Assembly: GCF_056746865.1 (NCBI RefSeq)
Contig: NZ_CM163382.1
Length of the DNA: 64,000 nt
Strand: one strand, 5' to 3'
The translations under genes were made by a program, and so were the position numbers. Positions 9,885 through 58,127 of the stretch are shown piece after piece; position 1 is the first letter of the stretch; each line of letters starts with the position of its first letter. The notes below the pieces were generated by a model. The model ran no database searches and was not told the origin of the DNA. It saw nothing but the letters and a program-made list of their open reading frames with translations.

Positions 9885-11216
9885 ATGGAAAACGCTAAAA
9901 TGAATTCGCTCATCGCCCAGTATCCGTTGGTAAAGGATCTGGTTGCTCTTCAAGAAACCACCTGGTTTAATCCTGGCACGACCTCATTGGCTGAAGGTTT
10001 ACCTTATGTTGGCCTGACCGAACAGGATGTTCAGGACGCCCATGCGCGCTTATCCCGTTTTGCACCCTATCTGGCAAAAGCATTTCCTGAAACTGCTGCT
10101 ACTGGGGGGATTATTGAATCAGAACTGGTTGCCATTCCGGCTATGCAAAAACGGCTGGAAAAGGAATATCAACAACCGATCAGCGGGCAACTGCTACTGA
10201 AAAAAGATAGCCATTTGCCCATTTCCGGCTCCATAAAAGCACGCGGCGGGATTTATGAAGTCCTGGCACATGCAGAAAAACTGGCTCTGGAAGCGGGGTT
10301 GCTGACGCTTGAAGATGACTACAGCAAACTGCTTTCTCCGGAGTTTAAACAGTTCTTTAGCCAATACAGCATTGCTGTGGGCTCAACCGGAAATCTGGGG
10401 TTATCAATCGGCATTATGAGCGCCCGCATTGGCTTTAAGGTGACAGTACATATGTCTGCTGATGCCCGGGCATGGAAAAAAGCGAAACTGCGCAGCCATG
10501 GCGTTACGGTCGTGGAATATGAGCAAGATTATGGTGTTGCAGTCGAGGAAGGACGTAAAGCAGCGCAGTCTGACCCGAACTGTTTCTTTATTGATGACGA
10601 GAATTCCCGCACGTTGTTCCTTGGGTATTCCGTCGCAGGCCAGCGTCTTAAAGCGCAATTTGCCGAGCAAGGTCGTATCGTCGATGCTGATAACCCTCTG
10701 TTTGTCTATCTGCCGTGTGGTGTTGGCGGTGGTCCTGGTGGCGTCGCATTCGGACTTAAACTGGCGTTTGGCGATCATGTTCACTGCTTTTTTGCCGAAC
10801 CAACGCACTCCCCTTGTATGTTGTTAGGCGTCCATACTGGATTACACGATCAGATTTCTGTTCAGGATATTGGTATCGACAACCTTACCGCAGCGGATGG
10901 CCTTGCAGTTGGTCGCGCATCAGGCTTTGTCGGGCGGGCAATGGAGCGTCTACTGGATGGCTTCTATACCCTTAGCGATCAAACCATGTATGACATGCTT
11001 GGCTGGCTGGCGCAGGAAGAAGGCATTCGTCTTGAACCTTCGGCACTGGCGGGTATGGCCGGGCCTCAGCGCGTGTGCGCATCAGTAAGTTACCAACAGA
11101 TGCACGGTTTCAGCGCAGAACAACTGCGTAATGCCACTCATCTGGTGTGGGCGACGGGAGGTGGAATGGTGCCGGAAGAAGAGATGGAGCAATATCTGGC
11201 AAAAGGCCGTTCATAA
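9885..11216 (+). CDS. dsdA: D-serine dehydratase (PLP-dependent)
   Basis: 443-aa [22 protein letters not shown]..., PLP-lysine context SGSIKARGG. Confidence 0.9.
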
Positions 11217-50971: not shown

Positions 50972-51047
50972 GGGTGATTAGCTCAGCTGGGAGAGCACCT
51001 CCCTTACAAGGAGGGGGTCGGCGGTTCGATCCCGTCATCACCCACCA
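50972..51047 (+). tRNA. valU: tRNA-Val (UAC)
   Basis: GGGTGATTAGCTCAGCTGGGAGAGCACCTCCCTTACAAGGAGGGGGTCGGCGGTTCGATCCCGTCATCACCCACCA. Confidence 0.9.
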
Positions 51048-51091
51048 ACTACTTTATGTAGTCTCCGCCGTGTAGCAAGAAATTGAGAAGT

Positions 51092-51167
51092 GGGTGATTA
51101 GCTCAGCTGGGAGAGCACCTCCCTTACAAGGAGGGGGTCGGCGGTTCGATCCCGTCATCACCCACCA
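51092..51167 (+). tRNA. valX: tRNA-Val (UAC)
   Basis: Identical second copy. Confidence 0.9.
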
Positions 51168-51213
51168 CTTTCTCGCCAGCTAAATTTCTTGTAAAAATGT
51201 GAAGTACCGAAGT

Positions 51214-51289
51214 GGGTGATTAGCTCAGCTGGGAGAGCACCTCCCTTACAAGGAGGGGGTCGGCGGTTCGATCCCGTCATCACCCACCA
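51214..51289 (+). tRNA. valY: tRNA-Val (UAC)
   Basis: Identical third copy. Confidence 0.9.
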
Positions 51290-51293
51290 CTTC

Positions 51294-51369
51294 GGGTCGT
51301 TAGCTCAGTTGGTAGAGCAGTTGACTTTTAATCAATTGGTCGCAGGTTCGAATCCTGCACGACCCACCA
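51294..51369 (+). tRNA. lysV: tRNA-Lys (UUU)
   Basis: GGGTCGTTAGCTCAGTTGGTAGAGCAGTTGACTTTTAATCAATTGGTCGCAGGTTCGAATCCTGCACGACCCACCA. Confidence 0.9.
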
Positions 51370-54051: not shown

Positions 54052-56076
<2,025 letters not shown>

Positions 56077-56137
56077 TCAATGCTAAAAACCCCCGACAAG
56101 CGGGGGTTCGAAGAGGAGTTAATTTGCCTTAAGTGTA

Positions 56138-57136
56138 TCAGGCGTTGGCGTCTTTGACTTCGCGGATGATGTCCTGGTACTCGCGCAATTTCTGCGGAGT
56201 CATCATACGGCGCTGATCGTCAAGAACAACACCGCCCACTTCATCGGCAATATGCTGCGCAGATTGCAGCATCAGCTTGAAGTTCTGCAGCTCGTCACCG
56301 TAAGACGGTACCTGCATAAAGATAGTGACACCCGGAGTAGTGAAATCCTTCATTTCAGGATCAAAGGTTCCCGGTTTCACCATATTCGCCAGGCTGAATA
56401 ACGCCGGGCCGCTGCCATCCGGGCTAAGATGACGATGGTAAATATTCATATCGCCAAAAATGAAGCCCGCTTGTTGAATGCTGTTAAGAAGCAGTTCACC
56501 GTTTAGCTCGCTACCGTGATGCGCCGCGACGTTCATGATAATCACCGCTTCTTTGCGCTTCGGTTTATCCATAACTGGAGCCGGTTCCGCTACAGGCTCA
56601 GGCTGTGGTGCCGCTACAGGCTCTGCAGGCTGGAAAGCCTGTTGTGCCGGTTGCGGTGCTGAATGCACTGGCTGCGGCGCTGATGCGACCTTTGGCGAAA
56701 CTGGCTGCTGCAACGGCTGTTCAGGCTGCGGCTGATAGGCAGGCTGCTGCACGGGTTGCTGCACCGGCTGCGCTGGACGCGGAGCATGTTGCGGCGGTAC
56801 CTGCGCTTCAGGCGGCGGCTGGACCGGTTGACGCGGCTGCGCAGACGCATAAGGCGGTTGGTACTGGTGTTGCGGCGACGGACGAGCAGCCTCATGCTCC
56901 TGGGCGTTAGCCGGGGCATGATTCACGCGGTGAACACGAACCTCACCAACGCCCTCATCATCTTCGACATCCTCGTCATAAGAATCGTCGTCACGTTTTG
57001 ACTTCATTCGTTTTAGTGGCCGATCGCGGAACATAGAAGATCGTTCTTTACGGCTGGTCCAGAAACCATGTACCAGTAAAGCGATTATGGCGATCGCGCC
57101 AACAATGATTAATATCAGACGCAAATCCTGCATCAT
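56138..57136 (-). CDS. zipA: Cell division protein ZipA (FtsZ membrane anchor)
   Basis: N-terminal TM ([22 protein letters not shown]), long P/Q-rich linker, C-terminal FtsZ-binding domain; about 332 aa here. Confidence 0.9.
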
Positions 57137-57365
57137 TATATTCTCTGTTGTTCTAACACCTTGCCACCACGGCAAACATTTACTCACTAAGAGTATTTGC
57201 CGATTACCTCAAGTGCAAGTGCACTATTAACTTTCACAGCACAAAGATAGATGAAATCGTGCTTTTTGCTGTTTTTTCGAACATATCCTAACTGTCCATT
57301 GCGCAATTACCCGGTAAAATACGCAGAATTTTCCTGGGATTGGTCAAAAGGAGCTCATCCTGATT

Positions 57366-58127
57366 ATGGTTTCATCATTCACATCTGCCCCACGCAGCGG
57401 TTTTTACTATTTTGCGCAAGGCTGGAAGCTCGTCTCGCAACCTGGGATTCGGCGTTTCGTTATTTTACCGCTGCTGGTCAATATTTTGTTGATGGGGGGC
57501 GCATTCTGGTGGCTCTTTACGCAACTCGATGTCTGGATCCCGACTCTCATGAGTTATGTTCCGGACTGGTTACAATGGCTGAGCTATCTGTTGTGGCCTC
57601 TGGCAGTCATCTCCGTGCTGTTAGTGTTTGGCTATTTCTTCTCAACGATTGCTAACTGGATTGCCGCTCCGTTTAACGGTTTATTGGCTGAACAACTGGA
57701 AGCACGATTGACTGGCGCTACACCGCCAGATACCGGGATTTTCGGTATCATGAAAGATGTGCCGCGAATCATGAAACGCGAATGGCAAAAATTTGCCTGG
57801 TATCTGCCGCGCGCAATTGTATTACTAATTCTTTACTTCATCCCTGGTATTGGGCAAACCGTCGCGCCGGTACTGTGGTTCCTGTTTAGCGCCTGGATGT
57901 TAGCCATCCAGTATTGCGATTACCCCTTCGATAACCACAAAGTGCCGTTTAAAGAGATGCGCACCGCCCTGCGCACACGCAAAATCACCAATATGCAGTT
58001 TGGTGCTTTAACCAGCCTGTTTACGATGATCCCGCTGCTTAATCTGTTCATCATGCCCGTTGCCGTTTGTGGTGCGACGGCGATGTGGGTCGATTGCTAT
58101 CGCGATAAACACGCGATGTGGCGGTAA
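57366..58127 (+). CDS. cysZ: Sulfate transporter CysZ
   Basis: 253-aa membrane ORF upstream of cysK. Confidence 0.9.

Follow-up and report, generated by a model that had tools for sequence, protein, structure and literature searches.

The closest described counterpart of the locus analysed here is ZipA of Escherichia coli K-12 (b2412, NP_416907.1, UniProt ZIPA_ECOLI, 328 aa), where the transmembrane helix covers residues 7-28, a charged region residues 29-85 and a Pro/Gln-rich (P/Q) domain residues 86-185 (PMC6904479). The P/Q domain has been regarded as an unstructured flexible tether, as stated in the passages of PMC6904479 that refer to Ohashi et al. (2002), and one cryo-EM/SAXS study found it to be compact and not freely extended under the conditions used (PMC6904479). 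PMC8669495 contains no statement on the length of this linker.

Among the disordered linkers of division proteins, the C-terminal linker of FtsZ belongs to a different protein but shares with the ZipA linker the character of a low-complexity disordered spacer that joins a conserved domain to an anchoring or interaction module. Both linkers are poorly conserved across species in length and in sequence. A likeness also exists to the phase-variable simple-sequence contingency loci, in which short direct repeats are likewise the sites of length change and slippage is the probable mechanism.

Here, these systems are compared with the zipA gene found in a stretch of 64,000 nucleotides, which as a whole is referred to as the window. 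Its product comprises 332 aa. We consider it about 90% probable that the difference between 332 and 328 aa reflects ordinary allelic variation in the length of the essential ZipA protein, a polymorphism that arose by slippage at short direct repeats within a length-tolerant tether.

The zipA gene and its Pro/Gln-rich linker

The zipA gene of the window is located between ligA (54052-56067, minus strand) and cysZ (57366-58127, plus strand), which is its conserved position in Escherichia and the gene order of both K-12 and the uropathogenic E. coli strain 118UI. It is thus the same gene in the same ligA-zipA-cysZ position as K-12 zipA. The following features were assigned:

56138-57136, minus strand: zipA coding sequence, 332 codons plus stop, cell division protein ZipA (ORF call, annotation match, Pfam, PDB)
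56882-57136, minus strand: residues 1-85, short periplasmic end, transmembrane helix and charged region (identical in amino acids to K-12 residues 1-85)
56570-56881, minus strand: P/Q-rich disordered linker, residues 86-189, 104 aa as against 100 aa in K-12 (composition, G+C)
56141-56569, minus strand: C-terminal globular FtsZ-binding domain, residues 190-332 (Pfam and PDB; identical in amino acids to K-12)

The mechanically called ORF reaches a GTG at position 57187 and would encode 349 aa, whereas the annotated MMQDL start at the ATGATG at position 57136 yields 332 aa. The latter start was adopted from the RefSeq annotation of the identical gene in strain 118UI (WP_001306251.1, 332 aa), with which the window zipA shares 100% DNA identity. 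The protein encoded in the window is exactly this catalogued sequence, which is present in 118UI and many other strains and differs from it at no position. Its protein identity with K-12 ZipA amounts to 99%.

The Pfam domain ZipA_C (PF04354) was detected on residues 198-321 with an E-value of 3.2e-46 and a score of 156.8 bits (cut-off 23), which identifies the C-terminal domain. ZipA chains in the PDB, among them the full-length entry 9iue, matched with E-values down to 8.8e-212, and the C-domain chains 1f46, 1f47 and 1f7w matched residues 189-332 (E-values of 1e-88 to 6e-93). At the other end of the protein, the anchor and the charged region are recognisable in residues 1-85, which are the same as in K-12 ZipA. 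Judging from the identity of the binding domain with that of K-12, the window protein can be expected to bind the C-terminal peptide of FtsZ and would be essential for cell division.

The limits of the linker were transferred from the K-12 boundaries 86-185 (PMC6904479), and its disorder is taken from the literature, where it is described for the K-12 protein (PMC6904479). Within these limits the linker consists of 31% Pro, 23% Gln and 15% Ala, and the G+C content of the tract reaches 0.60-0.69 in 150-nt windows compared to about 0.50 on either side. The original prediction, made from the letters and an ORF list, had placed a GC-rich, P/Q-rich linker within 56500-56950, which agrees with the mapped limits and the composition.

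It had also called the tract repeat-like, and this holds in a weak sense. Short imperfect direct repeats are present, including a single adjacent pair of 12-nt units that agree at 10 of 12 positions, and the repeat family at 12-nt spacing covers 56742-56758 and 56754-56770. A Tandem Repeats Finder run on zipA with a score threshold of 30 or more, however, detected no array, so that counting repeats in the linker comes down to one unit versus two. Several near-identical head-to-tail units in variable copy number, as they characterise VNTR or contingency loci, were not found in the linker: one or two units occur per allele, and the other natural zipA alleles are deletions with different end-points. 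In contrast to the contingency loci, zipA thus has two imperfect 12-nt units instead of an array, its length change is in frame and fixed within lineages, and it does not act as an on/off switch.

According to the mechanical ORF list, four ORFs of 66-101 aa that use other frames run across parts of the tract:

56535-56735, plus strand
56605-56910, plus strand
56614-56919, minus strand
56756-57001, plus strand

These ORFs had been suspected to be spurious. None of the four gave a Pfam match, and they are unannotated in the RefSeq records of K-12 and of the near-identical strain 118UI. We judge them to be by-products of a stop-poor, GC-rich tract, and gene callers should disregard the false ORFs to which this tract gives rise in other frames.

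Surroundings of zipA in comparison with strain 118UI

Apart from three stretches, the window can be aligned with the genome of strain 118UI over about 59 kb, in which 2 mismatches and one gap occur. The differing stretches are the first 4 kb of the window, an IS200 element and a tRNA array.

A tRNA-Arg(CCT) gene (4006-4080) immediately borders the first 4 kb, within window positions 1-4080. These 4 kb contain an Asn/Asp-rich ORF of 415 aa (523-1770) for which no Pfam match was obtained, as well as two ORFs that we take to be MlaA/VacJ-like (1949-2704) and YfdC-like (2998-3930), both names being putative. At the same tRNA-Arg(CCT) gene, strain 118UI carries an integrase-bearing island in place of these 4 kb. 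Next to the tRNA-Arg gene, window positions of about 4260-11216 correspond to the sucrose-utilisation genes of 118UI, which according to the 118UI annotation encode CscA, a LacI-type regulator, a kinase and a transporter, and a truncated dsdX pseudogene adjoins dsdA in this stretch of 118UI. The sucrose stretch is 99.99% identical between window and 118UI (2 mismatches and one gap over an aligned block of 25.9 kb).

The IS200-family element has a length of 709 bp (29941-30649) and lies inside the sensor-kinase gene ypdA, which it splits into the ORFs 29349-30011 and 30790-31758. It encodes a Y1 transposase of the IS200 family (30048-30557, minus strand; PF01797, E-value 3.8e-38) and is absent from the otherwise identical 118UI. 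The tRNA array at 50972-51369 reads Val(TAC), Val, Val, Lys(TTT) in the window and Val, Lys, Val, Lys in 118UI; it is rearranged or differs in copy number relative to 118UI.

Between the stop codon of zipA and the start codon of ligA, folding predicted a hairpin (CCCCCG-CUUGU-CGGGGG followed by UUUUU; 56086-56110, minus strand) that looks like a candidate intrinsic terminator or attenuator. The folding z-score of the 73-nt stretch containing it was only -1.33, and a scan for consensus terminators did not flag the hairpin.

The 12-nt indel and its frequency in E. coli

Alignment with K-12 MG1655 (b2412) confirmed both protein lengths, the 332 aa predicted for the window and the 328 aa that had been given for K-12. 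The only length change between the two genes is one in-frame indel of 12 nt (four codons) in the linker, corresponding to positions 373-384 of the gene, and it involves the following units:

56753-56764, minus strand: 12 nt missing from K-12, GTGCAGCAACCC, codons 125-128, encoding VQQP, first unit (DNA alignment, codon table)
56741-56752, minus strand: second unit, GTGCAGCAGCCT, encoding VQQP, kept in K-12 (DNA alignment)

Thus, the window reads GTGCAGCAACCC GTGCAGCAGCCT (VQQP VQQP) where K-12 has GTGCAGCAGCCT alone, and the indel is bordered by the direct repeat GTGCAGCA. The original prediction of a small in-frame length variation in the flexible tether is therefore borne out, and the alignment across strains that it had proposed as a check gave unequal lengths instead of a length identical to that of K-12.

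In addition, the two genes differ by 13 nucleotide substitutions. Four of these are non-synonymous, and all four are located in the linker (Q107P, H120R, Q145K and P148S in the direction from K-12 to the window); outside the linker, the two proteins show no amino-acid difference, either in residues 1-85 or anywhere in the FtsZ-binding domain. The window protein is hence distinguished from K-12 ZipA by four extra residues and four substitutions, all of them in the linker.

The frequency of the two forms was assessed in 5,426 complete E. coli genomes, of which 5,425 gave a whole-gene match to zipA. The K-12-type junction of 60 nt was covered to at least 80% in 3,043 of the 5,426 genomes (56%), and it was aligned in part only, as happens with the long form, in a further 2,283 (42%). 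Among 40 evenly spaced whole-gene matches, 17 had the long length and 22 the K-12 length. The 72-nt junction of the window was found at an identity of at least 99% in 1,350 records, the sampled rows being exact or matching at 71/71 positions. The count by coverage of this 72-mer (4021 at 80% or more) is unusable, since two pieces joined across the gap inflate the number with short-allele genomes; the frequency was instead derived from the K-12 60-mer, the identity bands of the 72-mer and the spread of whole-gene matches.

Strains with the long form include O157:H7 (EDL933, TW14359), O55:H7, EC958/O25b:H4 (ST131), 536, ATCC 25922 ("Seattle 1946") and an ST38 strain, and the short form occurs in K-12, BW25113, DH1, NCTC86, O111:H8 and O121:H19. 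We assign the named long-form strains to phylogroups E, B2 and D, and those with the short form to A and B1. Strain AW1.7, which carries the long allele, may belong to phylogroup A, so that the long allele may not follow the phylogeny cleanly.

The exact 332-aa protein, named "cell division protein ZipA [Escherichia coli]" in a public collection, recurs there on no fewer than 1000 contigs, and it falls into one 90% cluster with K-12 ZipA, the sampled members of which have 328 or 332 aa. The 332-aa form is therefore an already known, catalogued and very common allele (about 42% of the complete E. coli genomes). It is not peculiar to the strain of the window but one of two major alleles of the species.

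GC-rich, low-complexity repeats are error-prone in some sequencing technologies, and the extra 12 nt might for this reason be attributed to an artefact of sequencing or assembly. We give this explanation practically no chance: the 1,350 records are independent complete genome records, the zipA gene of 118UI is identical, the exact protein recurs on the contigs of the public collection and the indel is in frame. Taking this recurrence into account, the artefact is effectively refuted.

Direction and tolerance of the length change

The direction of the change was approached by comparison with E. albertii, the divergent Escherichia strain SCPM-O-B-8794 and Escherichia sp. MOD1-EC7003 as outgroups, with E. 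fergusonii lying outside this set. In E. albertii (zipA 90% identical) and SCPM-O-B-8794 (93%), two VQQ-type units are present at the site. They are parted by an additional CCGCAG (Pro-Gln), and the first unit uses CAA and the second CAG, which is the same order as in the window. MOD1-EC7003 (97.1% identical) possesses a single unit of the CAA type, whereas the single unit of K-12 is of the CAG-CCT type. Since the remaining units are of different types, separate deletions are suggested, and two independent events, one in the K-12-type lineage and one in MOD1-EC7003, may have occurred.

The reverse direction, in which the single unit of K-12 would be ancestral and the window allele would have arisen in some E. 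coli lineage through tandem duplication of the 12 nt that encode VQQP, has two arguments in its favour. MOD1-EC7003, the closest non-coli Escherichia record among the outgroups listed, has one unit like K-12, and an 18-nt deletion in the ancestor shared by E. coli and MOD1-EC7003, with a later duplication of 12 nt, amounts to two events as opposed to three if the long form is ancestral. Nevertheless, such a duplication seems unlikely to us. A fresh duplication does not fit two units that differ at 2 of 12 positions, nor does it fit an order of CAA and CAG that agrees position for position with that in E. albertii and SCPM-O-B-8794; the unequal unit types of MOD1-EC7003 and K-12 point to separate deletions, and reference strains from the early-branching phylogroups B2, D and E carry the long form.

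The unit-specific codons of the outgroups, the differences between the units and the fact that several deep E. coli lineages carry the long form make it probable that the two-unit form is ancestral and that the K-12 (A/B1-type) form results from a deletion of 12 nt. The window protein had been called slightly longer than that of K-12. The four residues of difference were confirmed, but the direction implied by this wording is probably the opposite, with K-12 carrying the deletion.

As to the mechanism, the 12-nt indel probably arose by slipped-strand mispairing or by short-homology recombination between the direct repeats GTGCAGCA. Other, rarer natural alleles of E. coli show larger changes. 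A ZipA of 309 aa has lost 69 nt, or 23 residues of the linker, and its exact 60-nt junction was detected in 49 records, including SaT040 and O25:H4 strains; a ZipA of 295 aa, which lacks 111 nt or 37 linker residues, was encoded in one genome (EM10-18-28). Both of these deletions have their end-points at PVQ-type peptide motifs that resemble those at the indel site.

A comparable picture emerges across species. Among the matches listed for a degenerate N-terminal DNA pattern, which number at least 120 loci, 104 species-representative ZipA proteins of the Enterobacterales were compared, and in these 104 the segment aligned to K-12 residues 86-185 took 40 different lengths between 74 and 127 aa. 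In the same proteins, again among the matches listed, the N-terminal part comprised 76-91 residues and the C-terminal domain 143-147. The difference of four residues is well inside this natural scatter of linker length.

If the linker serves as a flexible spacer that connects the FtsZ-binding domain to the membrane anchor, its exact length would be weakly constrained, and a change of four residues, about 4% of a chain of roughly 100, would be neutral or nearly so. We infer the same for the indel from natural variation only. One limit applies to this argument: as the P/Q domain was compact in one study (PMC6904479), a view based on length alone is a simplification.

It could be argued that the linker length is adaptively tuned, with four residues altering the distance between membrane and Z-ring or its dynamics and the two forms being kept by selection across E. 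coli lineages. Both forms are indeed frequent and seemingly associated with lineages, and the non-synonymous changes between the alleles are confined to the linker. Clonal descent alone, however, predicts a lineage association, and relaxed constraint predicts that substitutions are concentrated in the linker. Taking furthermore into account that length varies almost continuously in the relatives (40 lengths between 74 and 127 aa among the matches listed) and that natural isolates have lost 23-37 residues, adaptive tuning appears very improbable. An ordinary polymorphism of a length-tolerant tether remains the preferred explanation.

Still more speculative is the idea that the ZipA proteins of 328 aa (A/B1-type), 332 aa (B2/D/E-type) and 309 aa (the group including O25:H4) represent functionally different tethers, for which we see hardly any likelihood. 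If it were true, these tethers might slightly shift the spacing between Z-ring and membrane or the dynamics of ZipA and FtsZ and thereby contribute to a lineage-specific division physiology.

As a practical consequence of the polymorphism, the K-12 numbering of ZipA is off by four beyond position 122 in about 42% of E. coli strains. With regard to the biology of the protein, the P/Q tether accepts small and, in nature, even fairly large in-frame changes of length around an invariant anchor and an invariant FtsZ-binding domain, which is consistent with a spacer function of the linker.
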